Source: a virus
IMG/VR virus record: IMGVR_UViG_3300018422_000001
Span: 1-64,000 of that record
DNA length: 64,000 nucleotides
Strand: one strand, 5' to 3'
Each line of letters begins with the position of its first letter. Within the stretch, counting starts at the first letter, position 1. The translations under genes and the position numbers were made by a program. Under the pieces are notes generated by a model. The model was given only the letters and a program-made list of their open reading frames with translations, did not search any database and was not told the origin of the DNA. Of the stretch, positions 1-18,471 are shown piece after piece.

Positions 1-187
1 CGGCGCCCTCGAGCCCGGCGCCCTCGAGCCCGGCGCCCTCGAGCCCGGCGCCCTCGAGCCCGGCGCCCTCGAGCCCGGCGCCCTCGAGCCCGGCGCCCTC
101 GAGCCCGGCGCCCTCGAGCCCGGATCCCCGGCGCCCTCGAGCCCGGCGGTCGCGGCCCGGCGCCCTCGAGCCCGGCGCCCTCGAGCC
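1..187. repeat. 15-bp tandem repeat array, unit CGGCGCCCTCGAGCC
   Basis: 8 perfect head-to-tail copies at 1..120, more copies at 129..143, 158..172, 173..187. The window starts inside the array. Related degenerate GC-rich words continue to about 330. Confidence 0.95.
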
Positions 188-330
188 CGGCTGCCGCCCG
201 CGGCTCGCGCGACCCTGTCAGAGCCGCGCCCGAGCCTGCCCGCGCCGCTCGAGAGCCCGAGAGGCCGCCCGCGCCGGGCTACAGAGCCCGCGCCGCTCGA
301 GAGCCCCGCGGCCCTCGAGCCCGGCTCGTC

Positions 331-564
331 TCAGGCGGCTTTGAGCTTGCGGCCGACCGCGATAACCGTCTGCCGGCTGCCGAAGTTCAGCTCTGCGATA
401 AGCGACCGCGACCATTCGGTTTCCGCGATCGCGAGAAGCGTCTTTGCGAGCGTCACGATGGCGGCCTGACACACGGTCGACTCGGCGCCCTCGCCATCCT
501 CGTCGGCGGCGTTGATCTGAGATACGAGGTTCGTCGCGGTGGTCTTGAGCGTCGTCTTGTTCAC
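331..564 (-). CDS. small hypothetical protein (77 aa from GTG 564; ORF stays open to 591)
   Basis: ORF track 331..591. GTG at 564 lies 23 nt downstream of the Box B TAGTGT, identical spacing to gene 18032..18220. Confidence 0.5.
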   Translation of the reverse strand: MNKTTLKTTATNLVSQINAADEDGEGAESTVCQAAIVTLAKTLLAIAETEWSRSLIAELNFGSRQTVIAVGRKLKAA

Positions 565-580
565 ACCCTTATCGTGCGCT

Positions 581-597
581 ATCCGGGACACTAGCGC
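581..597 (-). promoter_or_regulatory. Box B motif copy 1 (GCGCTAGTGTCCCGGAT in gene orientation)
   Basis: ATCCGGGACACTAGCGC on + strand, identical at 18237..18253 and 18381..18397, one mismatch at 33824..33840. Always upstream of a minus-strand gene. Confidence 0.55.
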
Positions 598-644
598 AAG
601 GCTAGGCGCTCCCTATCGCACCGATTTTGGGGCTCGTGTAGGTA

Positions 645-683
645 TGAAATACCGCTTGCGTCTTTCAAGACCGGAGCTAGTCT
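645..683 (+). promoter_or_regulatory. Box A promoter/operator copy 1
   Basis: TGAAATACCGCTTGCGTCTTTCAAGACCGGAGCTAGTCT. TAGTCT ends 9 nt before ATG 693. Confidence 0.6.
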
Positions 684-692
684 CAAATACAG

Positions 693-1004
693 ATGGACAC
701 CAACGAGAAAACGCAGTCGTTCGAAGTCACGGTCGAAGCTTTCGTCGCCAAGCTCAATGCTCGCTCGGCAGAGCTTGCCGCGGCGGGCAAGAGCCCTCTT
801 TACAAGAGCTTCGGCTACACCATGGGACCTAAGCACGCGCGGATCTTCTCGATTTGCGGCAGCTCGCGATCCTCGCGGGCATTCTTCAGTCGTGACGGCT
901 TGATCCGACGCGCCGACAGCTGGAAAGCGGCGGGCCGTGTGCTCGGTTCGCACGACAGCGACGGTGCTTTTGCCTACGTTCTCGGCATCTATCTCAGCTA
1001 TTGA
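693..1004 (+). CDS. small early protein, unknown function (103 aa, MDTNEK...)
   Basis: ORF track. Start coupled to Box A copy 1. Stop abuts Box A copy 2. Confidence 0.6.
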   Translation: MDTNEKTQSFEVTVEAFVAKLNARSAELAAAGKSPLYKSFGYTMGPKHARIFSICGSSRSSRAFFSRDGLIRRADSWKAAGRVLGSHDSDGAFAYVLGIYLSY

Positions 1005-1043
1005 TGAAATAGTGCTAGCGCTTTTCAAAGACTCAGCTAGGTT
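1005..1043 (+). promoter_or_regulatory. Box A promoter/operator copy 2
   Basis: TGAAATAGTGCTAGCGCTTTTCAAAGACTCAGCTAGGTT. TAGGTT ends 6 nt before ATG 1050. Confidence 0.6.
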
Positions 1044-1049
1044 CAAGTC

Positions 1050-1829
1050 ATGGACAGCAAGGCAACACGGTCTCTCAACAAGCAATCGGTCGGCGTCGTC
1101 GCGGTGGCGATGTATGGCAAGCGTCGCGAGAAGTTTCTCGCGAGTGTCGCTGTGATCAACGAATCGCTCGCACAAGGCGCCTGGATCAAGCGCGGCTCGG
1201 CAAAAGCCGACGTTGGTTTCTATCAGGGCCTCGAGTCGAAACAGCGCAGAATGCAGCCCTTCCGGCTCGAGATGTGCGTGAATTACGGCCAAGCTTTCGC
1301 AGAAGAGCTGACTGATGAGATGTGCACGCAAACGGCGAATCCGCGCGTGTTGCGCGCCTGGGTTTCGCTCTGCAGCGAGGTTGCCGCCGCCCGTAAGCTT
1401 CTCGACGCGGCCCGCCCGCGACCGGTTGTGACGGCGATCGGGCTCTCGCCGAAAGTCACCAAGACGTTTCAAGAGTGCAATCTCGATCTCGACAGCACGA
1501 CGATCGCGCCTGCAGAAATCGAGCGCTGCGAGGTCCAGCGCCGACACTCGGTGACGGGCGAACCGTGTTTCACGGCGGCGGGCGTGCCTGAGATGGAGGT
1601 GTTTTACCGAGTCAAGTGGTCGACGGGAATCGCGTTGCACGTGAGCCGCTTCTCGTACAGCAACGGCTGCGAGGCGTGTGGCAAGTCGATTCCGAGCGGT
1701 CGATTCGTGCCGATCGAGGCCGACTGCCGCAAGCTTGGCAAGCGGATCGGGATGTGGGTCGGCTGCGATTGCGCGCGGAACATCTTTGGGATCAAGGACA
1801 TCGGGATCGGCCGAACCGAGGCGGTCTGA
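1050..1829 (+). CDS. early protein with C-terminal Cys-rich (Zn-ribbon-like) module (259 aa)
   Basis: ORF track. Leaderless-type start after Box A. C-terminal CEACGKSIPSGRFVPIEADCRKLGKRIGMWVGCDCARNIFG. Confidence 0.65.
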   Translation: MDSKATRSLNKQSVGVVAVAMYGKRREKFLASVAVINESLAQGAWIKRGSAKADVGFYQGLESKQRRMQPFRLEMCVNYGQAFAEELTDEMCTQTANPRVLRAWVSLCSEVAAARKLLDAARPRPVVTAIGLSPKVTKTFQECNLDLDSTTIAPAEIERCEVQRRHSVTGEPCFTAAGVPEMEVFYRVKWSTGIALHVSRFSYSNGCEACGKSIPSGRFVPIEADCRKLGKRIGMWVGCDCARNIFGIKDIGIGRTEAV

Positions 1830-1863
1830 AATCGACGCGAAGGGCCTCGACAACGGGGCCCGC

Positions 1864-2157
1864 ATGCGGGACACTAAGAGCATGGCCACGAAGACGAAGA
1901 AACTCAGGATCGTGCTCGCGAAACTCGTCGATGACGTCGAGGTGATCTCGGCCGGTGCTCGCGACCTCGGAGAGGCGCCGACTCTCGCGGCGATCAAGCG
2001 CGCGGTCGCGGTCGTCTGGAAGTTGAGCGGGACAGAGACCGACCTCGAGAAGGCGCGGAAGTTCGCGGCGATTGAGGGTTACACTGTGCTTGTCTACAAG
2101 ACGAGCGAGCGCAATCCGCTCGAGCGGGCCCGCGCGGAGATCTCGGCTGCCGGCTGA
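1864..2157 (+). CDS. small hypothetical protein (97 aa; alternative ATG 1882)
   Basis: In-frame part of ORF 1678..2157 downstream of the 1050..1829 stop. No own Box A, so probably co-transcribed. Confidence 0.45.
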   Translation: MRDTKSMATKTKKLRIVLAKLVDDVEVISAGARDLGEAPTLAAIKRAVAVVWKLSGTETDLEKARKFAAIEGYTVLVYKTSERNPLERARAEISAAG

Positions 2158-2181
2158 TTCTCGAGCGGCTGCCGCAAGTTA

Positions 2182-2220
2182 TGAAATACCGCTAGCGCTT
2201 TTCAAGGCCCGCGCTAGAGT
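2182..2220 (+). promoter_or_regulatory. Box A promoter/operator copy 3
   Basis: TGAAATACCGCTAGCGCTTTTCAAGGCCCGCGCTAGAGT. TAGAGT ends 6 nt before ATG 2227. Confidence 0.6.
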
Positions 2221-2226
2221 CTAGGT

Positions 2227-2388
2227 ATGAACACGATGACAAACCGAATCGCCAGCCGCTACGAGCAACTTCTTCGCGAGCTGCAGAGCGACATGTGCGA
2301 CCTCGTTGCGAGTGGCGACATGACCGACGTCGAGGCGAATGAGTGGGTCAACGCGGCGGCGGATCGGTGGGCAGCCGAACAAGGCTGA
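2227..2388 (+). CDS. small early protein (53 aa, MNTMTNRIASRYEQLL...), below ORF-track cutoff
   Basis: Hand translation: ATG 2227 to TGA 2386..2388 without stops. Bracketed by Box A copy 3 and hairpin 2403..2425. Confidence 0.55.
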   Translation: MNTMTNRIASRYEQLLRELQSDMCDLVASGDMTDVEANEWVNAAADRWAAEQG

Positions 2389-2402
2389 AAGGCCCGGAGC
2401 GC

Positions 2403-2425
2403 GCCGCTCGAGAATCTCGAGCGGC
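2403..2425 (+). terminator. GC-rich hairpin (10-bp stem GCCGCTCGAG / CTCGAGCGGC, loop AAT)
   Basis: Perfect inverted repeat read directly. No T-tract. The same hairpin recurs at 3635 and 3945. Confidence 0.5.
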
Positions 2426-2437
2426 TGCCGCAAGTTA

Positions 2438-2476
2438 TGAAATACCGCTAGCGCATTTCAAGAGCCGGGCTAGAGT
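2438..2476 (+). promoter_or_regulatory. Box A promoter/operator copy 4
   Basis: TGAAATACCGCTAGCGCATTTCAAGAGCCGGGCTAGAGT. TAGAGT ends 6 nt before ATG 2483. Confidence 0.6.
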
Positions 2477-2482
2477 CTACAC

Positions 2483-2641
2483 ATGGACGACGCACTCAAC
2501 ATCCTGAACCGATTCGAGACCGCCCGCGCGAAAGCCATGGACGCGGAAGCCCGTAACCTCTCGCAGGCAACCCAGCGCAAGCGCTGGCGTGAGTTTTTCG
2601 CGGCGGAAGACGCCCTCAAAGCTCGCGACGGCTGGCGTTGA
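2483..2641 (+). CDS. small early protein (52 aa, MDDALNILNRFETARAK...), below ORF-track cutoff
   Basis: Hand translation ATG 2483 to TGA 2639..2641. The stop overlaps the TGAAA of the next Box A. Confidence 0.55.
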   Translation: MDDALNILNRFETARAKAMDAEARNLSQATQRKRWREFFAAEDALKARDGWR

Positions 2642-2677
2642 AATACCGCTAGCGCTTTTCAATGCCGGAGCTAGGAT
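2639..2677 (+). promoter_or_regulatory. Box A promoter/operator copy 5
   Basis: TGAAATACCGCTAGCGCTTTTCAATGCCGGAGCTAGGAT. TAGGAT ends 6 nt before ATG 2684. Confidence 0.6.
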
Positions 2678-2683
2678 CAACAC

Positions 2684-2875
2684 ATGGACCGAACGCAGCG
2701 AGTGGCTTTGAGTAGCGAACTAAACCGCCTGAATCTCGAGAGGGCGGCTCTGAATCGGAAACGCGGCCCTCTCGGGCACGGCGTGATTTATCACGCGGAT
2801 CTCGCGGAGAAGCGGATCGCCTTGACAGCGCGGATCGAAGAGATCCGGGGCTTGTTGAGCGAGGGCAAGTCATGA
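2684..2875 (+). CDS. small early protein (63 aa, MDRTQRVA...)
   Basis: ORF track. Leaderless-type start after Box A. Confidence 0.6.
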   Translation: MDRTQRVALSSELNRLNLERAALNRKRGPLGHGVIYHADLAEKRIALTARIEEIRGLLSEGKS

Positions 2876-3069
2876 GCATCACGCGAGAGCAACTCGACTC
2901 GCACCAATGCGATCGCGCCCGATCGTGGTGGGAACACGACGCGCAAGGCATCCCGCTCTGTCGGGTGTGCGACAAATGCAGACAGAGCAAGCTGTCGCGC
3001 TACAGGCCCGAGATTCTGAGCGGCTACGATCAATCTGACGTCGACGAGCCGATCGATCCCGACGAGTGA
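2872..3069 (+). CDS. small Cys-rich protein (65 aa)
   Basis: ORF track. ATGA overlap with the previous gene. CDRARSWWEH...CRVCDKCRQSK pattern and acidic tail. Confidence 0.55.
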   Translation: MSITREQLDSHQCDRARSWWEHDAQGIPLCRVCDKCRQSKLSRYRPEILSGYDQSDVDEPIDPDE

Positions 3070-3268
3070 GACCGCCGCCCGCGGGGCAGCCCGAGAGCCC
3101 GAGAGGCCCGCGCCGGGGCCCGAGTCGCACGGCCGCCGATCTGCGCCGCTCGAGAGCCCGAGAGGCCCGATCCGGGGCAGCTCGAGACCGCCGATCGGCG
3201 CCGCTCGAGACCGCCGAATCGGCGCAGCCCCGAGATCGCTCGAGGCCCGCCGAACAATCGACCGGCGC
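3070..3268. repeat. GC-rich degenerate short-repeat spacer (CTCGAG-centred words)
   Basis: CGCCGCTCGAGAGCCCGAGAGGCCCG-type words repeated inside the spacer and also at 245..268. Several GCCGCTCGAGA(C/G)C units. Confidence 0.8.
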
Positions 3269-3271
3269 CGT

Positions 3272-3310
3272 TGAAATACCGCTAGCGCTTTTCAAGGCCG
3301 GAGCTAGAGT
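3272..3310 (+). promoter_or_regulatory. Box A promoter/operator copy 6
   Basis: TGAAATACCGCTAGCGCTTTTCAAGGCCGGAGCTAGAGT. 6 nt before ATG 3317. Confidence 0.6.
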
Positions 3311-3316
3311 GAAGAC

Positions 3317-3622
3317 ATGGACAACGCAGTCGCAAAAATCATCGTGTCTCAGCTCGGCAACCGCGGTTTGACGATGCTCGGCGCGAGCAACCTCGTCGCG
3401 GGCGAAAACAGCCTGACCTTCAAGATTGGCCGTAATGGCAAGTCGGTCTCGCACATCCGGATCACGCTGCAGCCGAGCGACACCTACACGGTCGAATCGC
3501 TCCGCGTGCGTAAGAGCGGCGGCGTGCCGGTGTGCAAGACGCTCGAGACCTGCGAAGACGTGCACGTCGAGAGCCTGCGACGCACCATCGAGGGCTTTAC
3601 CGCGATGTACATGAGCCTGTGA
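3317..3622 (+). CDS. small early protein (101 aa, MDNAVAKI...)
   Basis: ORF track. Leaderless-type start. Followed by hairpin 3635..3657. Confidence 0.6.
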   Translation: MDNAVAKIIVSQLGNRGLTMLGASNLVAGENSLTFKIGRNGKSVSHIRITLQPSDTYTVESLRVRKSGGVPVCKTLETCEDVHVESLRRTIEGFTAMYMSL

Positions 3623-3634
3623 GCCGCCGCCCGC

Positions 3635-3657
3635 GCCGCTCGAGAATCTCGAGCGGC
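3635..3657 (+). terminator. GC-rich hairpin GCCGCTCGAG-AAT-CTCGAGCGGC
   Basis: Identical to the hairpin at 2403..2425. Confidence 0.5.
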
Positions 3658-3669
3658 TGTGACGACTTG

Positions 3670-3708
3670 TGAAATACCGCTAGCGTCTTTCAAGGCGGGA
3701 GCTAGAGT
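3670..3708 (+). promoter_or_regulatory. Box A promoter/operator copy 7
   Basis: TGAAATACCGCTAGCGTCTTTCAAGGCGGGAGCTAGAGT. 6 nt before ATG 3715. Confidence 0.6.
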
Positions 3709-3714
3709 CTACAC

Positions 3715-3933
3715 ATGGACACGAAGCAAGCACTCACTCTGATTTATCGGCACACGCACAAGGACTACCGCGGCAAGCTCGCGGGCCGCAAGACGATCCT
3801 GATGGGTCGCCCGGGCGTCGGCACCTGCCTCGTGTTTCTCGAGGATTTGACGGCGGCGGAGATCGCCTCGCTGCTACCCGGGGCAGAGCGCCGAGAAGCC
3901 GAGCGGCTCGCGAAGAAGGCGCTCAAAGCTTGA
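3715..3933 (+). CDS. small early protein (72 aa, MDTKQALT...)
   Basis: ORF track. Leaderless-type start. Hairpin follows. Confidence 0.6.
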   Translation: MDTKQALTLIYRHTHKDYRGKLAGRKTILMGRPGVGTCLVFLEDLTAAEIASLLPGAERREAERLAKKALKA

Positions 3934-3944
3934 GCGAGGCCCGC

Positions 3945-3967
3945 GCCGCTCGAGATTCTCGAGCGGC
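3945..3967 (+). terminator. GC-rich hairpin GCCGCTCGAG-ATT-CTCGAGCGGC
   Basis: Perfect 10-bp stem read directly. Confidence 0.5.
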
Positions 3968-3979
3968 TGCCGCAAGTTA

Positions 3980-4018
3980 TGAAATACCGCTAGCGCTTTT
4001 CAAGACTGGAGCTAGATT
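3980..4018 (+). promoter_or_regulatory. Box A promoter/operator copy 8
   Basis: TGAAATACCGCTAGCGCTTTTCAAGACTGGAGCTAGATT. 6 nt before ATG 4025. Confidence 0.6.
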
Positions 4019-4024
4019 GAAGTT

Positions 4025-4243
4025 ATGGAAACGAATCGCAAGAACACGCCGACCTGGACCGTGACGGAAGCCGTAGTGAACGAGCGCGGGATGCTCGTGT
4101 GCACGACCCGCAGCCTGACCTTTCGCGCCGAAAACGCCCTCGAGGCCGACGGCATCATGGTCGGTTGGGCCCGCTTTATCGGCGCGACCGCCGTGTATGT
4201 GCGCAACCCCTGGATGCACAACGAGTACGCGACCGCGGTTTGA
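4025..4243 (+). CDS. small early protein (72 aa, METNRKNT...)
   Basis: ORF track. The first 4 codons are nearly identical at DNA level to gene 4368. Confidence 0.6.
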   Translation: METNRKNTPTWTVTEAVVNERGMLVCTTRSLTFRAENALEADGIMVGWARFIGATAVYVRNPWMHNEYATAV

Positions 4244-4322
4244 GACCGCCCGCCCGCGCCGGGGAACGACCGGCGCCCGGCGCCCGCCGACAGGGCCCGC
4301 GGGAACAATCGACCGGCGCCGT

Positions 4323-4361
4323 TGAAATACCGCTAGCGCTTTTCAAGGCCGGAGCTAGATT
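4323..4361 (+). promoter_or_regulatory. Box A promoter/operator copy 9
   Basis: TGAAATACCGCTAGCGCTTTTCAAGGCCGGAGCTAGATT. 6 nt before ATG 4368. Confidence 0.6.
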
Positions 4362-4367
4362 GAAGTT

Positions 4368-4670
4368 ATGGAAACGAACCGCAACGAGACGCAGACGCTC
4401 TTCGCCCTCATGACCGACCGCGACGAAGCTTGGCGCTGCAGCAAGTGCTCGGGCAAGGGTGTGATTGACGCCTACCACTGGAACAAGGACGGGCTCTGCT
4501 TCAAGTGCGAGGGCACCGGCGCCGCTCAGGATGCGCGCTCGCTCAAGACGGTCGAGCGGCTCGACGCGAAGATCGCCAAGCTCAGCGCCTCGATTCAGGC
4601 GCGCGCGCCGAAAGCCGAGGAACTGCCGGATCTCGCGGACATCGACCTCTCGGCTCTGATGAGCGGCTGA
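4368..4670 (+). CDS. small protein with two DnaJ-type CxxCxGxG zinc-finger motifs (100 aa)
   Basis: CSKCSGKG and CFKCEGTG motifs. Leaderless-type start after Box A. Confidence 0.65.
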   Translation: METNRNETQTLFALMTDRDEAWRCSKCSGKGVIDAYHWNKDGLCFKCEGTGAAQDARSLKTVERLDAKIAKLSASIQARAPKAEELPDLADIDLSALMSG

Positions 4671-4680
4671 AACCTACAGG

Positions 4681-4694
4681 GCCCCGATCGGGGC
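4681..4694 (+). terminator. short GC hairpin (palindrome GCCCCGATCGGGGC)
   Basis: Perfect 14-nt palindrome 11 nt after the stop of 4368..4670. Confidence 0.4.
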
Positions 4695-4730
4695 TCTCCG
4701 AGCCCGCGCCGAACAATCGACCGGCGCCGT

Positions 4731-4769
4731 TGAAATACCGCTAGCGCTTTTCAAGACTCGAGCTAGATT
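4731..4769 (+). promoter_or_regulatory. Box A promoter/operator copy 10
   Basis: TGAAATACCGCTAGCGCTTTTCAAGACTCGAGCTAGATT. 6 nt before GTG 4776. Confidence 0.6.
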
Positions 4770-4775
4770 CAAGAC

Positions 4776-4946
4776 GTGGACAGCAACAACCTGACGTTCT
4801 GGGGATACTCGAAGATCAACGGCCGCACTTTCGGCGCCTGGCTCCGCGCGGCGGGCCGCCATGATGGCAACGTAACCGCTGTAGGTTACATGGACTTGCA
4901 AGCGGCTTGGCGCCGGGGCGAAAAGCCCGCGGATCACACCTACTGA
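4776..4946 (+). CDS. small early protein (56 aa, VDSNNLTFWGYSKING...), below ORF-track cutoff
   Basis: Hand translation GTG 4776 to TGA 4944..4946. Followed by a terminator-like hairpin. Confidence 0.5.
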   Translation: MDSNNLTFWGYSKINGRTFGAWLRAAGRHDGNVTAVGYMDLQAAWRRGEKPADHTY

Positions 4947-4955
4947 AGACCTGCA

Positions 4956-4984
4956 GGGGCCGCCTAGAGCGGCCCTTGTTCGTT
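4956..4984 (+). terminator. rho-independent-like terminator (GGGCCGC-CTAGA-GCGGCCC then TTGTTCGTT)
   Basis: 7-bp GC stem, 5-nt loop, T-rich tail read directly. Confidence 0.6.
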
Positions 4985-5207
4985 CCCCGACCGAGAGGCG
5001 CCGCCGCCCGCGCGCGCCGCCTGCGACCGTCAGAGCCCCGCTCGAGACCGCTCGAGACCGCCGCTCGAGACCGCCGACCGCGCCTGCGACCGTCAGAGCC
5101 CCGCGCCGAGACCGCCTGCGACCGCCGCCCGCGCCGGGGCAAGCTCGAGACCGCCGACCGAGACCGCGACGGATCGGCGCTCGAGAATCTCGAGCGGCTG
5201 CCGCAAG
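4985..5207. repeat. GC-rich degenerate short-repeat spacer
   Basis: CGCCTGCGACCGTCAGAGCCCCGC occurs twice. CCGCTCGAGACCG units. Ends in hairpin CGCTCGAG-AAT-CTCGAGCG at 5178..5196. Confidence 0.8.
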
Positions 5208-5210
5208 TTA

Positions 5211-5249
5211 TGAAATACCGCTAGCGTCTTTCAACGCGCGAGCTAAGCT
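5211..5249 (+). promoter_or_regulatory. Box A promoter/operator copy 11
   Basis: TGAAATACCGCTAGCGTCTTTCAACGCGCGAGCTAAGCT. 6 nt before ATG 5256. Confidence 0.55.
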
Positions 5250-5255
5250 CTGGTT

Positions 5256-5432
5256 ATGACAACGACGAGCAACGCGAAGACCTGGATTGTGGCCGAGTAT
5301 CGCAGCGACGACTTTTACGGCCAGACCGAGAACCTCACCTTGCAGGCAGCACACGCGCTAGCCGAAAAGATTCGGGAGAGCGGGCACGAAGCCTCGGTGG
5401 TCGACAACCTCGCTGACCTCGAATCTTTCTGA
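5256..5432 (+). CDS. small early protein (58 aa, MTTTSNAKTWIVAEYRSDDFYGQ...), below ORF-track cutoff
   Basis: Hand translation ATG 5256 to TGA 5430..5432. Hairpin follows. Confidence 0.55.
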   Translation: MTTTSNAKTWIVAEYRSDDFYGQTENLTLQAAHALAEKIRESGHEASVVDNLADLESF

Positions 5433-5446
5433 GAAGAGCCCCGACC

Positions 5447-5471
5447 GGGCCCCGGGGAACAGCCGGGGCCC
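5447..5471 (+). terminator. GC hairpin GGGCCCCGG-GGAACAG-CCGGGGCCC
   Basis: Perfect 9-bp stem read directly, 15 nt after the stop codon. Confidence 0.5.
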
Positions 5472-5624
5472 GCGCCGCTCGAGACCGCCGCTCGAGACCG
5501 CCGAGACCGCCGCTCGAGACCGCCGCTCGAGACCGCCGACCCGCGCCGACCCGCGCCGACCGCGCCGACCGCGCCGACCGCGCCGACCGCGCCGACCCGC
5601 GACGACCCGCGCCGAGACCGCCGA
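5472..5624. repeat. two adjoining microsatellite-like arrays (13-bp CCGCTCGAGACCG x4; 9/10-bp CCGAC(C)CGCG x8)
   Basis: Read directly from 5472..5624. Confidence 0.9.
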
Positions 5625-5663
5625 CGAAATACCGCTAGCGTTTTTCAAGACTCGAGCTAGGAT
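5625..5663 (+). promoter_or_regulatory. Box A promoter/operator copy 12
   Basis: CGAAATACCGCTAGCGTTTTTCAAGACTCGAGCTAGGAT. 6 nt before ATG 5670. Confidence 0.6.
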
Positions 5664-5669
5664 CAAGAC

Positions 5670-6212
5670 ATGGACAGCAACGCAACCGAGATGTCGACCG
5701 AGACGAAGAAGATTCACCCTTTCGAGCGCAACGGGCTCGGGATCGCGCCTTTCAAATACGTCGGCTTTTATGTCTCGAAGTATCAGGCGATCCCGGGCGA
5801 CCCGAGTTGCCCGATTCAGGCGGGAAGCTCGTGCGACCATTGCGGAACCGCGATCATGAATGTTTGCCGGATCAAGTCGGCAGACGGTCGCGAATTCAAG
5901 GTCGGCAACGAATGCGTTGCCAAGGTCGGTCGCGAGTACGATCGCGCTCTCTTGACCGTCGTCGAGGCCGCCGCTCGCAAGAGGGCCCGAGTCGCCGCTA
6001 AGAGCCTCGCAGCGGCCCGCGCCGACGAGTTGGCGACCTTGCTCGCGACCGACTCGGTTCGGGCGACCCTGGCCCTGCAGCCGCACCCGCACCCCTACCG
6101 CGCCGGTCTTGGTGAGACCCTTCTCGACTCGCTCGAGTTTGCGGTCAAGCGTAGCGGCGCGGCGGGCAAGGCGCGCGCCCTCAAGACGATCAAGACGCTG
6201 ATCGGCGCGTGA
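5670..6212 (+). CDS. early protein with Cys-rich module (180 aa)
   Basis: ORF track. SSCDHCGTAIMNVCRIKSADGREFKVGNECVAKVG resembles the C-terminus of 1050..1829. Confidence 0.65.
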   Translation: MDSNATEMSTETKKIHPFERNGLGIAPFKYVGFYVSKYQAIPGDPSCPIQAGSSCDHCGTAIMNVCRIKSADGREFKVGNECVAKVGREYDRALLTVVEAAARKRARVAAKSLAAARADELATLLATDSVRATLALQPHPHPYRAGLGETLLDSLEFAVKRSGAAGKARALKTIKTLIGA

Positions 6213-6220
6213 GCGCACAC

Positions 6221-6240
6221 GGGCCCGCCAAGTCGGGCCC
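6221..6240 (+). terminator. GC hairpin GGGCCCG-CCAAGT-CGGGCCC
   Basis: 7-bp perfect stem 9 nt after the stop. Confidence 0.45.
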
Positions 6241-6271
6241 GCTCGGTGTTCCTACGCCGGATCGCGGTCGC

Positions 6272-6310
6272 TGAAATACAGCTGGCGCTTTTCAACCGCG
6301 CTGCTAGGCT
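6272..6310 (+). promoter_or_regulatory. Box A promoter/operator copy 13 (diverged)
   Basis: TGAAATACAGCTGGCGCTTTTCAACCGCGCTGCTAGGCT. 6 nt before ATG 6317. Confidence 0.5.
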
Positions 6311-6316
6311 CTGGAC

Positions 6317-6625
6317 ATGGACAGCGTGAGCAAGACGGGTCTCGCGAAAGCGCGCAAGGTGGCGAGAGCCGAGCGAGCGAACTACGAGGCGGCGAGATGG
6401 GCTGCTCTCGCAGCGGGCCGACAGGCGCGAGCCCGCAAGACCGGCAGAGCCCGCATGATCCGAGAAGACGCTCTTGATGCAGCGCTCGAGGCCCGGATCA
6501 CGATGAAACATTACGCGGCGGTGCTCGCTCGAATGCTCGCTCTCCCGGTCGAGCCTTTCGCGGGCCGGAACAGCCCCGCGGCGATCGCGCGGCTGCGAGC
6601 GAGCGGCCGACTCGATCCAGCGTGA
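6317..6625 (+). CDS. small early protein, Arg/Ala-rich (102 aa, MDSVSKTG...)
   Basis: ORF track. Leaderless-type start. Confidence 0.55.
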   Translation: MDSVSKTGLAKARKVARAERANYEAARWAALAAGRQARARKTGRARMIREDALDAALEARITMKHYAAVLARMLALPVEPFAGRNSPAAIARLRASGRLDPA

Positions 6626-6630
6626 TCCGC

Positions 6631-6658
6631 TTGACTGTACACGCATCCGGGGTACAAT
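6631..6658 (+). promoter_or_regulatory. canonical sigma-70-type promoter TTGACT-16 nt-TACAAT
   Basis: TTGACT 6631..6636, TACAAT 6653..6658. The predicted TSS near 6665/6666 coincides with an in-frame GTG 6666. Confidence 0.6.
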
Positions 6659-6953
6659 GAATGCTGTGACTCCGACCGAAGTAGTCGTCTCGAAAGAAGC
6701 GCAAAAGGATCTTCGAACGGTACCGAAGCAAGTGGCGCGAAAGTTCGAGCAGTGGCGTCTTGCGATTTTGGTCGATGGTCTCGAAGAGACGCGGAAGATC
6801 CCGGGGTACCACGATGAGCCGCTTGCGGGAGATCTCGCGGGAACACGCTCGGTCCGACTGAGCGGCGCCTATCGCGCTTACTACCGGATCGAGGACGGCG
6901 AGATTCGGCTTGTCAGAGTCACGGGCGTTGACAAACACCGGTATCGGAAGTGA
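6657..6953 (+). CDS. RelE/ParE-superfamily (HigB-like) toxin (start ATG 6657 or, more likely, GTG 6666)
   Basis: GYHDEPLAGDLAGTRSVRLSGAYRAYYRIEDGEIRLVRVTGVDKHRY matches the RelE/ParE C-terminal pattern. Toxin-first order with a downstream XRE HTH. Confidence 0.7.
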   Translation: MNAVTPTEVVVSKEAQKDLRTVPKQVARKFEQWRLAILVDGLEETRKIPGYHDEPLAGDLAGTRSVRLSGAYRAYYRIEDGEIRLVRVTGVDKHRYRK

Positions 6954-6960
6954 GGAACCC

Positions 6961-7407
6961 ATGACTGCGAAGAAGAAAGCAACGAAGGTCAGACCGGGCG
7001 ATCGCGAGGCTGGCGAGTTCATGGATGAACTTTTGGGAGGCCCGCTCACGTTCGGCGCAATGGTTCGCTCGACTCGGCTAACCGACAACTTCACTCTCGC
7101 AACATTCGCGAAGAAGCTCGGTGTGTCGCGACAGTTTGTGTGCGATGTCGAGCAGGGGCGTCGCAGCGTTTCGGCTGCTACCGCTGCAAAGTGGGCTTCG
7201 TTGCTCGGCTACTCAGAAGCCGTGTGGATCGGGCTCGCGTTGCAGGATGGCATTGACGCGTCTGGTCTCAAGTATCGAGTGCATGTGACACCTGGATTCG
7301 ACTTCAATCGCTCGACAGGGCGCGGCCCGAAGGGCTTGCGCAAGGCTCTCGAGATCATGAGAGCGTCGAAGCGAGGTCGACCGCGTCAGCTCGAGGCTAC
7401 GAAATGA
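6961..7407 (+). CDS. XRE-family HTH antitoxin (HigA-like)
   Basis: GAGGAA SD before ATG 6961. FTLATFAKKLGVSRQFVCDVEQGRRSVSAATAAKWASLLG is an XRE helix-turn-helix. Confidence 0.7.
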   Translation: MTAKKKATKVRPGDREAGEFMDELLGGPLTFGAMVRSTRLTDNFTLATFAKKLGVSRQFVCDVEQGRRSVSAATAAKWASLLGYSEAVWIGLALQDGIDASGLKYRVHVTPGFDFNRSTGRGPKGLRKALEIMRASKRGRPRQLEATK

Positions 7408-8444
7408 GCACGCCAGCGAACATGTTCGATGCTTCGAGGCTCAGTGCGAGTCGTGCCTTGCTGTTTTCCAAAGCATGGTTGAGCGATCCGATTCCGACGG
7501 CGACGAGGCTCGCGACCGAGATCTGCCGAATGTCGCGGATCTCTCTCGCGGATCCGAATGATCCCGAAACCAGTGCGGCCTATCACACGATCATGATGAA
7601 TACGCTCATCGTTGGTCGATGGGCTATGGCAGGGCTTCCGGTCGTGACGCTCGGACATCGCACGGCGGCGGCTTTGATGGCCACACGAATCAAGCCCGAC
7701 GATGCCGAGGAGTTCGTGCGAGCCCCGTGGCCCGCATTCGCGATCCGGTTGCCGGTGCCGATGCTCACGGTCGACGACGAGGGCGTGTTGCGAGATGCCA
7801 ACCTCGTGCTCGTGACGAGTATCCCTCGAGAGCAAGTCGGACCGAACGATGAGCTACAAGGCGGCGATCGATGGTGGTACAAGCTCGTAGCGGTCGATCA
7901 CGAGCCTCTGCCCGGGTCCGAGCGAATGCCGCCCGACATGATCGGGTTTCTCGGTGGCCTCAATCTGTGGGGCTTCAACACGCCGACTCGGTATCTCGCA
8001 ACGGCCGACTCGAGCGACGAAGAAGGTTGGACTCGGTGGGGCTTGCGCGAGACGATCTCGAGCGACCAACGCTCGGATCAGATGGCTCGCTCGCTGATCA
8101 TCGCGTGCTGTCTGTATCTCAGCGGCGATCCGCTCTCGAGGGCCGCTCGAGGCGAGGGCGAGAGCAAGGTCACGATCACGACTCGCTCTCGCTCGCAGCG
8201 CGACGGCGACGAGCTGCCCGGCTACACCGAGCACGAGATCCGATCGGCGATCACGATCAACCTGCATCATGCGATTCGCGACTACGTGCATCACGGCGGT
8301 GGAACACCTGCAGTGCAGACGCTCGTCGCGGGGCATTGGAAGCGACAGGCGTTCGGCACCGGCCGGACCGAGCGGCGGATCATCCACGTGCATCCCTACT
8401 GGCGCGGCCCGATCGACGCGCCGGTCTCGACTCGAATCAAGTGA
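7404..8444 (+). CDS. hypothetical protein, 346 aa, translationally coupled to the antitoxin
   Basis: ORF track. ATGA overlap with 6961..7407. No motif recognised. Confidence 0.6.
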   Translation: MSTPANMFDASRLSASRALLFSKAWLSDPIPTATRLATEICRMSRISLADPNDPETSAAYHTIMMNTLIVGRWAMAGLPVVTLGHRTAAALMATRIKPDDAEEFVRAPWPAFAIRLPVPMLTVDDEGVLRDANLVLVTSIPREQVGPNDELQGGDRWWYKLVAVDHEPLPGSERMPPDMIGFLGGLNLWGFNTPTRYLATADSSDEEGWTRWGLRETISSDQRSDQMARSLIIACCLYLSGDPLSRAARGEGESKVTITTRSRSQRDGDELPGYTEHEIRSAITINLHHAIRDYVHHGGGTPAVQTLVAGHWKRQAFGTGRTERRIIHVHPYWRGPIDAPVSTRIK

Positions 8445-11848: not shown

Positions 11849-13162
11849 ATGCCACGAAAACAAACGGGTTCAGTCGAGAAAAGAGGCGGTCGGTTTCGCG
11901 CACGACTTGGCCGAGAAGTGCTCGGCACATTCGATACAGAAGACGAAGCGGATCGGAAGATCATCGCGGCGCAAGTGATGAACAAGGGCGTTACGCCCGA
12001 CATGTTTTGCATCAAGGGCGAGAAGTACATGAAGAACGAAGAGCTGCTCGCGCGTACGCGTCGAGGCAACTCGAAGATGTGGCAGAAGGAGGTCTCGCTT
12101 TGGGCTCGGCACATTCGCACGAGCAAGATTTATCGAATGAACGTGAAGAGCATTCAACGCGAGCACGTTCAAGATCTGCTCGAGAAGGTCGCGCAAACAC
12201 GCGCCGTGCGAATCGAGCCGAAGGTTGGTGGTGGATTCGATATCGTCGAAACGGATCGATTCTGCGGTGAGCGCACGATCAAACGTGTTCGCAGTCGTCT
12301 GTCGCACTTCTTCGATCGATGCCGTGGCTTGAAGAGCAACCCAGCGCTGCGTTGTCCGATTCCCAACACGACACAGATCAAGATTCGTCACGACTCGGAT
12401 CAGAAGCCTCACTTGCATGCAGACGAGGTCGTTCGTTTGTTCGATCTGCTCGAGATGACAGACGAGCATCGTGCTGTGTACGCGTTCGGGATTTACGCCG
12501 GGCTTCGTATCGACGAGATCGTTGGTCTGCGATGGGAGAACATTCTTCGGCTCGACAGCGACGATCCCGAGCTTGCGATCCAGTTCAGCTACGACGCGCC
12601 GACCAAAACGCAAAGCTCGCAGAGAGGAATCCCGATGCTGCCGCAGCTCGTGAAAGAGCTTCGGGCGTATCGTGCCTCGTTGCCCTCTACGCCGATCGCT
12701 GGCGTTGTGTTCCCTGGCAAGGATGGCTCGGTGAGGTCGATCGGTTACTCGGCTCGTTGGGCTGACAAGCGGTACAGGAACGAAAACGGAGAGTGGCGAG
12801 TGCGGGTCGGTTACCGAACGCTCGCTGGCATTCGCAAGCACATCTTGTTTCGGCATGTCCGGCATACGTGCGCGACTCATTTGCTCAAGGGCACATTCAC
12901 GCACGGGCACGAATGGCCGATCGAGAAAGTCTCGCAGTTGCTCGGGCACGAAGACGTGTCGACGACGATCGAACACTACGCCTCGAGAGAGGTCGACCGA
13001 CTGCACTCGGAGGTCGCGAAGGGCAAGCGCAAAGCCGAGCGAGAGCAGAGGCGCGTAGCCTCGGCTCGGTTGCTCGAGGATGGCTCAGACGAGCCCCGCA
13101 AGCCGAGGTCGATCTCTGGCAAGAAACCGGGCCGGAAAAACCCCACGAAAAACCCCAGGTGA
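11849..13162 (+). CDS. int: tyrosine recombinase / phage integrase
   Basis: GLRIDEIVGLRWENI, HVRHTCATHLLKG and LLGHEDVSTTIEHYA (R, HxxR and Y motifs). GAGG 9 nt before ATG 11849. Confidence 0.9.
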   Translation: MPRKQTGSVEKRGGRFRARLGREVLGTFDTEDEADRKIIAAQVMNKGVTPDMFCIKGEKYMKNEELLARTRRGNSKMWQKEVSLWARHIRTSKIYRMNVKSIQREHVQDLLEKVAQTRAVRIEPKVGGGFDIVETDRFCGERTIKRVRSRLSHFFDRCRGLKSNPALRCPIPNTTQIKIRHDSDQKPHLHADEVVRLFDLLEMTDEHRAVYAFGIYAGLRIDEIVGLRWENILRLDSDDPELAIQFSYDAPTKTQSSQRGIPMLPQLVKELRAYRASLPSTPIAGVVFPGKDGSVRSIGYSARWADKRYRNENGEWRVRVGYRTLAGIRKHILFRHVRHTCATHLLKGTFTHGHEWPIEKVSQLLGHEDVSTTIEHYASREVDRLHSEVAKGKRKAEREQRRVASARLLEDGSDEPRKPRSISGKKPGRKNPTKNPR

Positions 13163-13175: not shown

Positions 13176-13274
13176 CCCAAGTGTGCGAAAAGATGGGCCT
13201 GCGCCCATAGCTCAGCTGGATAGAGCGTCGGTCTTCGGAACCGACGGACCGCCGAATGATTTCGCACACTTGGG
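13176..13274. other. candidate attP-like structure: perfect 15-bp inverted repeat (13176..13190 / 13260..13274) bracketing a tRNA fragment
   Basis: CCCAAGTGTGCGAAA and TTTCGCACACTTGGG are exact reverse complements. Located 14 nt after the integrase stop. Confidence 0.6.
13201..13249 (+). pseudogene. tRNA-Arg-like 5' fragment (acceptor strand, D-arm, anticodon arm with UCG; no canonical T-arm)
   Basis: GCGCCCA TA GCTC AGCTGGATA GAGC G TCGGT CTTCGGA ACCGA folds as the 5' two-thirds of a tRNA. The downstream sequence lacks a 5-bp/7-nt T-arm. Confidence 0.6.
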
Positions 13275-14084: not shown

Positions 14085-14135
14085 TCCGAAGATTGGGCTT
14101 CTCCCGAGCCCGTCTCGAGGGCTACCGTCGGGCCC

Positions 14136-14396
14136 ATGGGCAGCCCTCGAAGAGACGACAGCATCGCGCCCGGATTCGGTGCGCGTGTTCGAGAAGCACG
14201 AGAGCGGCTATGGATGTCGCAAGCCGCTCTCGGTGAGGCGATCGGCGGCGACACGGCGACCATCTATCGGACCGAGGCTGGCGACAATCTGCCGCAGCTC
14301 GCAACGTTCGCAGCCATGTGCATCGCGCTCGACGTCACGTCTGACTTTCTGTTGTTCGGCGAGAGCGGTCGACCTCGAGTCATGGTGAAACGCTAG
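14136..14396 (+). CDS. XRE-family HTH regulator (Cro/CI-like)
   Basis: FGARVREARERLWMSQAALGEAIGGDTATIYRTEAG. Confidence 0.7.
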   Translation: MGSPRRDDSIAPGFGARVREARERLWMSQAALGEAIGGDTATIYRTEAGDNLPQLATFAAMCIALDVTSDFLLFGESGRPRVMVKR

Positions 14397-16051: not shown

Positions 16052-16648
16052 ATGGTCGAGGATTCACCCTCGACCGAATCGAGTCAGCTAATGGGCGAGC
16101 AACACGAGCTGTTCCCTGGTCACGTGCAACCGCAGGCTCCAAGAGCCGAGCCCGCGCCAGCCGGGCCGCAGGTAGCGGTGCCCTCTCGCCCGCGCCTCTC
16201 GAGGGCTGCAGGGCCCGCGGTTGAGCCGCCTGAGAGCACGGAGCGGGTCTTCGACGTCGTAGCCGCAAGCGAGGGCCGTGGCCCGTGGTCGACACGCACG
16301 AGGGCCTCGACTGCGGCCTATCACGCGAAGGCGATCGCGGCCGAGCCCGCGCCGGTGTGCATGGTCTCGGTGCAGATCACTCGCGGCTCGCCCGAGCCAC
16401 TGCCCGAGCGGGTCGAGTCGCTGCAGGCCGCGCTTACGAAAGCCAAGCAAACGATCACCGAGCTACGCGCGCGCATCGTGCGCGCCGATACGGTGGCCGA
16501 AATGTGGCGGTCGGCATCGGATCCGGAAAATCTCGAGCGACGAAAATGCGGGCTCGCGATCCGTCGGATCCTGCAGGTCGACGGCGATGCGAGTCTCAAG
16601 ACGGCACTCGCAGAGCTGCAAGCTCTGATCGGAAAGGGTGAGCCATGA
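16052..16648 (+). CDS. hypothetical protein, Pro/Ala-rich N-terminus, coiled C-terminus
   Basis: In-frame ATG 16052 of ORF 15965..16648. Divergent from the minus-strand operon. Confidence 0.45.
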   Translation: MVEDSPSTESSQLMGEQHELFPGHVQPQAPRAEPAPAGPQVAVPSRPRLSRAAGPAVEPPESTERVFDVVAASEGRGPWSTRTRASTAAYHAKAIAAEPAPVCMVSVQITRGSPEPLPERVESLQAALTKAKQTITELRARIVRADTVAEMWRSASDPENLERRKCGLAIRRILQVDGDASLKTALAELQALIGKGEP

Positions 16649-16920
16649 CAGAGCCGACGACGACTGATTTTCGGCTGGCGAAACGCCGCGAAGCTCTCGA
16701 GGTGTTCCAAGCCGAGCCGCAGCGTGAGCTGACGTGCACGGAACTCGCGAAAGCGATCCGGTGCTCGAGGTCGATCGCAACCCAGACGTTGCGATCGCTC
16801 GAGACCGCTCTCACGATCACGAGCCGACTCGTCGTGAGCCCTCATCGCGGCGGGCTCGGCCGACGGCGGCGGTTCTACCGCCTGCATCGGCGAGTCGCGG
16901 CAGCCCCGCGACTCGCCTAG
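16645..16920 (+). CDS. winged-helix (MarR-like) DNA-binding protein
   Basis: ATGA-coupled. ELTCTELAKAIRCSRSIATQTLRSLE. Confidence 0.5.
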   Translation: MTEPTTTDFRLAKRREALEVFQAEPQRELTCTELAKAIRCSRSIATQTLRSLETALTITSRLVVSPHRGGLGRRRRFYRLHRRVAAAPRLA

Positions 16921-17100: not shown

Positions 17101-17140
17101 TCGGTGTGCTCCGGGCCGGGGTTGCGTCTGGCCTCACTCA

Positions 17141-17179
17141 ACACTAGCTCCGGTCTTGAAAAGCGCTAGCGGTATTTCT
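17141..17179 (-). promoter_or_regulatory. Box A promoter/operator copy 14 (minus strand; only copy with a ~45-nt leader)
   Basis: Reverse complement AGAAATACCGCTAGCGCTTTTCAAGACCGGAGCTAGTGT. Confidence 0.55.
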
Positions 17180-17480: not shown

Positions 17481-17717
17481 TTACGCCTGCTCGCGAGAGG
17501 CGAGCCATGCTCGACCGGTCTCGGTTGCGCGCGCGTGATTGGCGTTTCGAGTCGCGAAGCCGATGCTCACGAGGTGCTCGATCGCGTTCCACCATCGCGC
17601 GGCATCGGGGCCCGCCATGCGGTAGCCGCTCGGTGTCAGCGATCCGTCCGCTGTAGCCGCCTCGGTGAGCACGACGACGCGGTAGGCGGTCAACTTGATT
17701 GGTTTCTGCGATGCCAT
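17481..17717 (-). CDS. small early protein (78 aa)
   Basis: ORF track. ATG 17717 lies 6 nt after the TAGAGT of minus-strand Box A. Confidence 0.6.
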   Translation of the reverse strand: MASQKPIKLTAYRVVVLTEAATADGSLTPSGYRMAGPDAARWWNAIEHLVSIGFATRNANHARATETGRAWLASREQA

Positions 17718-17723
17718 GATTTG

Positions 17724-17762
17724 ACTCTAGCTCCGGTCTTGAAAAGCGCTAGTGGTATTTCA
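17724..17762 (-). promoter_or_regulatory. Box A promoter/operator copy 15 (minus strand)
   Basis: Reverse complement TGAAATACCACTAGCGCTTTTCAAGACCGGAGCTAGAGT. Confidence 0.6.
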
Positions 17763-17805: not shown

Positions 17806-17988
17806 TCAGACCTTGACCGTACACGCGACTGGATACTGCCCGGCAGTCTGCGACATCCAGCGACCCGCGCTGACTTCGTACACGTGCAACCCGCGAAGCA
17901 CGTAGGTGTGTGGCGGCTCGCCCGGGCCGACCGAGAACGTGTTGCGCACTTCCATCCACTGCCCGTTGACTCTGATTTGCTTGCTCAC
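17806..17988 (-). CDS. small early protein (60 aa from GTG 17988)
   Basis: GTG 7 nt after the TAGGCT of Box A copy 16. C-terminal part of ORF 17806..18222. Confidence 0.5.
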   Translation of the reverse strand: MSKQIRVNGQWMEVRNTFSVGPGEPPHTYVLRGLHVYEVSAGRWMSQTAGQYPVACTVKV

Positions 17989-17995
17989 AACAGAC

Positions 17996-18034
17996 AGCCT
18001 AGCTCGGTCGCTGAAAGATGCAAGCGGTATTTCA
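17996..18034 (-). promoter_or_regulatory. Box A promoter/operator copy 16 (minus strand, diverged)
   Basis: Reverse complement TGAAATACCGCTTGCATCTTTCAGCGACCGAGCTAGGCT. Confidence 0.5.
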
Positions 18035-18464: not shown

Positions 18465-18471
18465 GTGGTTT

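Follow-up and report, generated by a model that had tools for sequence, protein, structure and literature searches.

Box A is a repeat unit of ~45–48 bp present 20 times in the DNA analysed here, a stretch of 64,000 nucleotides (nt) with ~62% GC, positions 1 to 64,000 of the IMG/VR virus record IMGVR_UViG_3300018422_000001, which is called the window below. The reading put forward, with a probability of about 0.7, is that Box A is a repeated promoter cassette for a sigma-70-family holoenzyme, and that 14–16 of its 20 copies would yield leaderless or near-leaderless messenger RNAs (mRNAs), ribosomes then binding the 5′-terminal AUG or GUG directly. Exact and degenerate Box A patterns were looked for in viral, genome and metagenome collections and came up in a single relative, IMGVR_UViG_3300018432_000014 (Ga0190275_10000156; its coordinates are given as L005), which has 69–90% DNA identity to the window; in 185,579 genomes they had no match.

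Box A geometry and its dyad

The consensus is TGAAATACCGCTAGCGCTTTTCAA-N8-GCTAGnnT. A search with GAAATACCGCTAGCGCTTTTCAA returned 19 copies at up to 3 mismatches, as against 0 expected in shuffles, and 20 at up to 5. Thirteen are on the plus strand at 645–6319, three on the minus strand at 17.1–18.0 kb and four on the plus strand at 18.4–22.8 kb; all are intergenic and oriented as the next gene. Between the TAnnnT hexamer and the ATG or GTG that follows it, the spacing is 6 nt in 16 of the 20 (starts 1050, 2227, 2483, 2684, 3317, 3715, 4025, 4368, 4776, 5256, 5670, 6317, 17717 on the minus strand, 22070, 22347 and 22804), 7 nt in two (17988, minus strand, and 18472) and 9 nt in one (693), and the last, copy 17178 on the minus strand, has a leader with GGAG. 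An initial annotation, made from the letters of this DNA, had given the same figures. With a chance of 0.027 per position for ATG or GTG, the probability of at least 16 of 20 at one offset is ~3e-22; there are 12 different spacer hexamers, every one of them then followed by RTG. The start context RTGGA(C/A) was likewise recounted at the twelve copies already claimed for it, and codon 2 is GAC or GAA in 11 of 17 genes behind a box (box genes) versus none of 55 other genes (Fisher 4e-9). A start sequence which the annotation took to be common to 1050, 4776, 5670 and 6317 does not extend to 4776, where the start is GTG and the letters are GTGGACAGC, not ATGGACAGC.

What would read such a repeat? 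Four zones can be told apart in its logo: an invariant block at −45 to −22 (TGAAATACCGCTAGCGCTTTTCAA), a variable linker at −21 to −17, GAGCTAG at −16 to −10 with an invariant T at −7, and a weakly conserved spacer which runs into a moderately conserved RTGGACA at +1 to +7. The −10 element is G−14, C−13, T−12, A−11, G−10, n, n, T−7. Its T−12, A−11 and T−7 are invariant in all 20 window copies and in all 15 copies of the relative having the hexamer, while −9, −8 and the spacer vary, and this combination is the signature of −10 recognition by the sigma-70 family. For that family the usual distance from −10 to +1 is 6 nt, and the geometry of Box A is predicted to put +1 on the first base, A or G, of the start codon. 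In the relative the distance from hexamer to RTG is unchanged even with a different gene downstream.

Absent from the logo are a −35 hexamer at 16–18 bp (CTAGCG occupies −35 to −30) and the TGn of an extended −10 (AGC is at −15 to −13). As −35 candidates, TTGAAA at −46 and TTTCAA at −27 were rejected, the spacers on the logo being 28 nt and 9 nt respectively, and neither sigma-54 GG-N10-GC nor ECF-type GAAC...CGT is in the logo. A sigma-70 consensus scan calls just one promoter, at 6631, and no Box A copy. What the box does have, at −45 to −22, is a 24-bp quasi-palindrome, TGAAATAC CGCTAGCG CTTTTCA, centred at ~−34, with a perfect CGCTAGCG core and outer arms TGAAA and TTTCA; 8 of its 12 symmetric positions pair. 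This region is nearly invariant in both phages, beyond the needs of RNA polymerase (RNAP), and it is likely that a dimeric regulator of phage or host origin binds there. If so, the bound regulator may be an activator that replaces the −35 element and switches on all ~20 units, or alternatively a repressor that keeps the ~20 units off in a lysogen. Occurrences of CGCTAGCG outside the boxes were discarded as extra operators, there being three (14391, 25258, 56039) against 2.3 expected in shuffles.

An explanation that we place a little short of even odds leaves the leaderless geometry in place and has Box A read by way of a dedicated factor, whether a phage or alternative sigma or an activator substituting for −35, with the genes then forming a middle or delayed class. 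The lack of −35 and TGn and the invariant 24-bp quasi-palindrome in both phages speak for it. So does the canonical sigma-70-type promoter on the plus strand at 6631–6668, TTGACT-16-TACAAT (6631–6658), N7 and GTG 6666, before the ParE/RelE-like gene that runs to 6953: it shows that the host RNAP uses TTGACN, from which Box A would depart on purpose. The in-frame GTG that the initial annotation placed at the expected +1 of this promoter is there, 7 nt past the TACAAT hexamer, a geometry like that of Box A. At least four small helix-turn-helix (HTH) proteins are encoded, candidate regulators being those of 6961–7407, 14136–14396, 16645–16920 and 24824–25294; and in a temperate phage activator-dependent promoters would be silent by default in the lysogen. 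Set against a dedicated factor are the finding of no sigma factor or RNAP family in ~60 proteins of the 64-kb window scanned with Pfam and PHROGs, the frequency of −10-only promoters in other high-GC bacteria, as in mycobacterial maps of transcription start sites (TSSs), and the position of the dyad, since a centre at −34 is more repressor-like, class II activators being near −41.5. As Box A has neither −35 nor TGn it probably needs a factor bound to the quasi-palindrome, and membership of an ‘early’ class is therefore not established.

Shine-Dalgarno usage and the choice of start codon

With a Shine-Dalgarno (SD) test that asks for a 4-mer SD core ending 4–11 nt upstream of the start, a core is found before 2 of 17 box genes (12%), in both cases the TAGGAT hexamer itself, which upholds the earlier claim that the box leaves no room for an SD. 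Before the non-box genes the figure is from 20 of 55 (longest-ORF start, where ORF is open reading frame) to 28 of 55 (first four starts), i.e., 36–51%, and before internal ATG or GTG it is 59 of 616 (10%). The enrichment before non-box genes over internal codons (p=5e-7) means that the host uses SD. Late genes 36785, 37806, 39142 and 44642, for which SD sites had been claimed, all have one (GGAG, AGGA, GAGG and AGGA, in that order, at 6–10 nt), and gene 2872–3069, which follows box gene 2684 in the same unit, has GAGG at 7 nt. Inside the box, GGAG stands at −17 to −14 in 9 of the 20 window copies, at a distance of 13 nt to the ATG; in 14 of 15 copies of the relative TGAG takes its place, so that this GGAG is no conserved SD. 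SD-like pairing of box genes in an energy scan of −20 to −1 was traced to this GGAG and to the TAGGAT hexamers.

If GGAG is so frequent in the box, may Box A instead lie within longer transcripts and act at the RNA level, as an SD-independent enhancer, a standby site or a processing site, its genes being leadered? We consider this improbable. That GGAG would form a duplex of ~−5.8 kcal/mol with the anti-SD, each box has two AU-rich tracts (GAAAUA and UUUUCAA) in a genome of 62% GC, and several boxes, e.g., that at 2639, abut the preceding gene without a hairpin. However, neither the 13-nt distance to the ATG nor the TGAG of the relative favours such a role, and the pattern of conservation fits recognition of DNA by sigma rather than pairing of RNA. 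When folded, box RNA shows no excess of structure over shuffles (z=+1.18); Rfam at gathering and permissive thresholds gave no match in region 1–7000; and the sigma-70 consensus scan did not find upstream promoters for most box units. Further, the leadered copies have a separate, properly spaced SD of their own past the box, which is what one would expect of transcripts that begin there.

The 5′ ends of the box genes are suited to leaderless initiation, being rich in A and CA and unstructured. At +4 to +33 they have 33% A, whereas other genes have 24% and gene interiors 20%; CA and AC dinucleotides amount to 23%, 14% (p=3e-5 for box versus other genes) and 11%, and for the first 40 nt the folding energies are −3.8, −7.5 and −10.8 kcal/mol, in the same order. 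In leaderless translation downstream CA repeats enhance and local structure inhibits, as reviewed (PMC9031893).

Is the codon next to the box the true start of the gene? In 14–16 of the 20 copies the evidence says that it is. The 6-nt spacer puts the TAG of the hexamer in frame as a stop, which rules out a start further upstream. The ORF finder begins all 13 ORFs of the left cluster exactly at the box codon, and the codon log-likelihood is positive for all box ORFs, comparable with that of the structural genes. In ortholog pairs with the relative, the substitutions from the box ATG up to the following in-frame start, summed over 693, 1050, 3317, 3715 and 2483, are 20, 29 and 50 at codon positions 1, 2 and 3 (6, 9 and 18 for 693; 4, 5 and 12 for 3715), and as they fall mostly on third positions the stretch is under coding constraint. 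Residues 5–101 of the 3317 protein align with positions 3–98 of the 98 of phrog_9437, where the next in-frame start is only at codon 10, and phrog_5014 aligns from its position 3 with the 693 protein from residue 9 onward, before any alternative start. On the public (Logan) contig an independent gene call gives identical starts for 5670 and 6317, and the 693 ortholog in the relative retains the 9-nt spacer.

The initial annotation had counted 19 copies as leaderless, and for most of them this stands. In 2–3 copies, however, the same box would drive a leader of 32–103 nt and an ordinary SD-led gene; the relative likewise has leadered box copies. Copy 17178, at 17132–17179 on the minus strand, has a leader of ~33 nt (predicted +1 at 17134), with GGAG 9 nt before ATG 17100 (ORF 17100–16924). 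Copy 22760 (22759–22806, plus strand) has a 32-nt leader, with GGAG 7 nt before ATG 22836 of the gene 22836–23093 (85 amino acids, aa), whose ortholog is kept in the relative; in the frame of its box-adjacent GTG 22804 the substitutions are 2, 5 and 1 by codon position. Mostly at position 2, and with GGAG before ATG 22836, they indicate that GTG 22804 is no gene start. Copy 22303 (22302–22349, plus strand) is probably either a 103-nt leader or a small leaderless upstream ORF: its GTG 22347 opens 31 codons, after which comes an SD-led gene, 22450–22725 (GAGG at 5 nt). The 31-codon ORF stops at TGA 22440–22442, which overlaps that GAGG, and may be coupled as a leaderless upstream ORF to gene 22450 or be simply a leader. 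For copy 18427 (18426–18474, plus strand; TAGTCT-N7-GTG 18472, with an alternative ATG 18484) the start is ambiguous; the amidoligase gene behind it runs to 19407 and its Pfam match begins at residue 7.

Such copies are what can be said for RTGGAC as the mere tail of a duplicated DNA repeat with the real starts further downstream (it holds for 22760, probably for 22303 and possibly for 18427, and unrelated genes do have identical first 11–14 nt), yet that is less probable still, as no SD precedes the downstream in-frame starts of the 13 left-cluster genes and 17717, substitutions are third-position-biased from codon 2 on, PHROG profiles cover residues before the next start, and the relative's ortholog of 1050 is without an alternative start near codon 20.

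Several points weigh against Box A as a source of leaderless mRNAs. The +1 was placed from the −10 distance alone, leaderlessness thus being an inference from sequence, and without a −35 element Box A may be inactive in the absence of an extra factor, or be read by another sigma. Four of the candidate leaderless starts are GUG, which works in that capacity in some high-GC bacteria and poorly in some bacteria (PMC9031893). RTGGAC is also present in two leadered copies, and some of it may be a signal for the promoter or the initial transcript, not for translation; the GGAG of the box could serve as a distant SD on read-through transcripts. The assignment of the host, discussed below, comes solely from an attP-like tRNA fragment. 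As for the two class-specific modes of initiation that had been claimed, they hold qualitatively, with an SD contrast between box and other genes that is modest, at only p=0.07 (Fisher) with crude gene calls.

Exchange of cassettes and likeness to known systems

The boxes are conserved between the window and its relative, and the genes between boxes are reordered, replaced or missing. Window gene 1882 is without Box A, unlike its ortholog in the relative; in the window, 6317 and 17988 are behind Box A and the relative's orthologs are behind another motif, which for 17988 is a second repeat, Box B, with a 17-nt leader. Since orthologs change their upstream element between phages, the mode of initiation belongs to the cassette and not to the gene, which further qualifies the claim of class-specific modes. 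The exchange does not end at the start codon. In non-orthologous genes the first 11–14 coding nt are identical, after which identity falls to random, as with ATGGACAACGCAGT, which window gene 3317 has in common with the gene that corresponds in the relative to window gene 2483; 1050 and R5800, which are orthologs, have differing N-terminal codons. By this comparison the first 3–5 codons (Met-Asp/Glu-Ser/Thr-Asn) travel with the box between unrelated genes, and the initial annotation's proposal of an element that reaches into the translated region is borne out, with those 11–14 nt exchanged along with the box.

Before four of the boxes is a GC-rich hairpin, GCCGCTCGAGAATCTCGAGCGGC (23 nt, z=−2.8, no U-tract); others have different upstream repeats. 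Box A cassettes, some with this hairpin before them, would double as recombination points. A more ambitious version, tentative and on our estimate rather unlikely, makes Box A a portable plug-in cassette, comprising regulated promoter, +1, start codon and N-terminal tag under one regulator, with recombination in the box or first codons capturing foreign ORFs. If it is true, foreign ORFs would be captured, swapped and expressed at once without a ribosome-binding site, the tag (Met-Asp/Glu-Ser/Thr-Asn) would be encoded by a CA-rich stretch free of structure and tuned to leaderless initiation, and the promoter would consist of the −10 element with the 24-bp dyad instead of a −35, the one regulator acting on all ~20 units.

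Relevant to the surroundings of the boxes, the minus strand of the copies preceded by CAAGTTATGAAATA carries TTGAAA-N18-TAACTT, weakly sigma-70-like and below the scan threshold, at 2170–2205, 2426–2461, 3968–4003, 5199–5234 and 18414–18449; these sites point back into the upstream hairpin. Box B has the sequence CCGGGACACTAGCGC and is found on the plus strand at 583–597, 18239–18253, 18383–18397 and 33826–33840, with variants at 1866–1880 in the window and at L005 3376–3392 in the relative. On the minus strand it reads GCG(C/T)TAGTGTCCCGGAT, a promoter-like site of TAnnnT type, and it is upstream of the minus-strand genes 331–564/591, 18032–18220 and 33529–33783, all with short leaders. Its plus-strand variants, GGGACACTAAGAGC-ATG (1882) and GGGACACTAAAGGT-ATG (relative), are at starts where the other phage has Box A. 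The intergenic DNA of the early region also has GC-rich tandem repeats, at 1–320, 3092–3228, 5048–5076, 5473–5615 and 18290–18337, many of them around CTCGAG, examples being CGGCGCCCTCGAGCC 13 times at the window start, CGCCGCTCGAGAC five times, and GCAGACG seven times between two Box B copies. Recombination may use these repeats as substrates, or they may be spacers akin to terminators.

How new is all this? Phage promoters that abut start codons are already known, from lambda and actinobacteriophages, and no new mechanism is involved here. The transcript of lambda cI from PRM is leaderless. For the Cluster O mycobacteriophages, leaderless transcripts have been predicted, by bioinformatics only, from the SigA-like promoters PL1, PR2 and PL2 (PMC4351075). 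As in lambda PRM and the Cluster O promoters, the −10 of Box A is 6–7 nt before the start, +1 is predicted to fall on the codon's first base, and no SD is present. Those phages have a single promoter or a few, with −35, whereas here there are ~20 copies without −35 and ~15 small genes; Box A has in addition the shared RTGGAC context and first codons. The host, too, is different, being probably a myxobacterium and not an enteric bacterium or an actinobacterium. What is new is the large uniform set of candidate leaderless genes, the −35-less cassette with its dyad, the shared first codons and the probable myxobacterial host.

The PeSL (promoter-early stem-loop) cassettes of T4-like phages are repeated promoter cassettes that mediate shuffling of modules (PMC2839356, PMC4122927). 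Box A resembles them as a short conserved promoter cassette between small non-essential genes, partly with hairpins, and in that related phages differ by whole gene modules between cassette copies. However, PeSLs are canonical sigma-70 promoters with leaders and SD, and Box A is without −35, predicted to be leaderless, and reaches 11–14 nt into coding sequence. If the plug-in cassette proposal is right, a myxobacterial phage would have in Box A a leaderless equivalent of the PeSL system of T4. The SAS/ESAS of Cluster K mycobacteriophages, which are temperate, are conserved repeats before many start codons in the non-structural region. Likeness to them lies in a repeat immediately upstream of many starts and an upstream inverted-repeat extension, but SAS contains the ribosome-binding site of leadered, SD-dependent genes and Box A contains a −10 hexamer and no SD.

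MotA-dependent middle promoters of T4 and the Mor- and C-dependent promoters of Mu are activator-dependent and lack −35; the conserved inverted repeats of phiC31 are multi-copy operators. The L5 stoperators, too, are multi-copy operators (mentioned in PMC4351075). Box A appears to share with the MotA and Mor/C promoters a good −10 and, at the place of −35, a conserved sequence of factor-binding type, and with the phiC31 and L5 operators the many copies per genome, co-oriented with transcription. From all four systems it differs in sequence and in its dyad centre at ~−34, and no homologs of MotA/AsiA, Mor/C or the phiC31 and L5 repressors were identified among the window proteins scanned.

Nearer at hand are other soil-phage contigs, L011, L014 and L013, in which homologs of the 5670 protein occur. 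There, canonical TTGACA-N17-TAnnnT promoters stand 6–7 nt before ATG, three to four in L011 and one in L014, and L013 has TATACT-N7-ATG; as these contigs share start-abutting promoters, the leaderless layout would be common among these high-GC phages. Positions of such promoters are 8468, 9967, 12685 and 18413 in L011, 5794 in L014, and 4175 and 5941 in L013, and an example of one repeated in unrelated soil-phage contigs is TTGACA-N12-GATATACAAT-N6-ATGAAC. In L013 there is probably a leaderless start (MNANETETRTMMH...) 30 nt upstream of the one chosen by the public gene call (MMHRFE...).

The phage, its host and the remaining copies

The window contains the structural genes of a contractile-tailed phage (portal, HK97-type capsid, sheath, tape measure, baseplate), together with DNA ligase, DNA methylase, amidoligase, and a ParE/RelE-like toxin with an Xre-type partner. 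A tyrosine integrase is at 11849–13162 and directly after it, at 13201–13247, is a 47-nt 5′ fragment of tRNA-Arg(TCG). That phage genes flank the fragment on both sides implies an attP-type arrangement in a non-integrated temperate phage, and by its gene content the phage is classed as temperate. The fragment is likely an attP in which, unusually, the 5′ part of the tRNA is present and not the 3′ part; in the region 13179–13271 it is bordered by a 14-nt inverted repeat, ccaagtgtgcgaaa and tttcgcacacttgg. In the relative the integrase/attP region differs, L005 8622–11435 being without match to the window. In the protein database the window's own 5670 protein is on a contig of 110,308 bp, and the contig of the relative is 73,487 bp long; the source contig may be a concatemer or contain further sequence.

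What is the host? An exact 44-mer of the tRNA fragment is found in only 3 of 185,579 species genomes, all Polyangiales/Sandaracinaceae (Myxococcota), and in those three it belongs to a complete tRNA-Arg gene, of which it forms the 5′ part. With the 44-mer confined to that group, the host is probably a soil myxobacterium of the order Polyangiales. The early and late regions used as DNA queries gave no match in 50,697 deposited phages, and in the same set the portal protein has ~33% identity at best, to assorted phages, with no clue to the host. Among 33 delta-proteobacterial genomes, eight were predicted in a computational survey to have leaderless genes, at an average of 15.8% (PMC3160421), and a leaderless pexR has been proposed in myxobacteria in a 2025 paper (PMC12754779); a literature search for myxobacterial TSS maps or leaderless genes yielded one indirect mention and the 2011 computational survey only.

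Of the toxin and Xre-type HTH genes behind the canonical promoter (window 6657–7407; L005 3690–4150), the ParE/RelE-like toxin gene is missing from the relative except for its last ~20 nt, and the HTH gene is present there, behind a leader of ~70 nt with GAGGA as its SD. Kept without the toxin, the HTH protein is more than an antitoxin and may act as a regulator of the phage. An Xre/Cro-like HTH gene near the integrase (in the region 14100–14396) has TACCGT 7 nt before ATG 14136 and no SD; it may be a leaderless gene of repressor type, of which temperate phages often have examples, or the arrangement may be due to chance. A 346-aa protein (7404–8444) has a weak AcrVA2-like (anti-CRISPR) Pfam match in public annotation, and the Pfam scan at E<=0.01 gave none.

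The left cluster, all on the plus strand, opens with the copy at 645–695, where TAGTCT and the 9-nt spacer precede ATG 693 (ORF 693–1004, 103 aa) with a predicted leader of ~2–3 nt. From there to its end each hexamer is followed by N6 and the start. At 1005–1052 TAGGTT serves ATG 1050 (ORF 1050–1829, 259 aa), and TAGAGT comes twice in succession, at 2182–2229 before ATG 2227 (ORF 2227–2388, 53 aa) and at 2438–2485 before ATG 2483 (ORF 2483–2641, 52 aa), the latter with the hairpin upstream at 2403–2425. After TAGGAT at 2639–2686 (ATG 2684; ORF 2684–2875), TAGAGT returns at 3272–3319 for ATG 3317 (ORF 3317–3622, 101 aa) and at 3670–3717 for ATG 3715 (ORF 3715–3933, 72 aa; hairpin 3635–3657 upstream). 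TAGATT is the hexamer at 3980–4027 (ATG 4025; ORF 4025–4243, 72 aa; hairpin 3945–3967 upstream), at 4323–4370 (ATG 4368; ORF 4368–4670, 100 aa and CxxC zinc-finger-like) and at 4731–4778, where the start is GTG 4776 (ORF 4776–4946, 56 aa). TAAGCT at 5211–5258 precedes ATG 5256 (ORF 5256–5432, 58 aa; hairpin 5176–5198 upstream), TAGGAT at 5625–5672 precedes ATG 5670 (ORF 5670–6212, 180 aa), and the cluster closes with its most divergent copy, TAGGCT at 6272–6319, before ATG 6317 (ORF 6317–6625, 102 aa). On the minus strand are TAGAGT-N6-ATG 17717 at 17715–17762 (ORF 17717–17481, 78 aa) and TAGGCT-N7-GTG 17988 at 17986–18034 (ORF 17988–17806, 60 aa). The plus-strand copy at 22024–22072 has one extra linker base and then TAGAGT-N6-GTG 22070 (ORF 22070–22288, 72 aa).

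Box A could serve as a compact expression part for high-GC hosts. Of wider concern, translation initiation and phage biology in Polyangiales and Myxococcota are almost unstudied. If the leaderless reading of Box A is true, there would be ~15 leaderless mRNAs beside 2–3 leadered ones from one promoter, with orthologs in a sister phage that switch mode, and hence a natural comparison set for leaderless efficiency: AUG versus GUG, GAC as codon 2, and CA-rich unstructured starts. For the phage itself, Box A is a candidate for a single-regulator switch of the whole early gene set.

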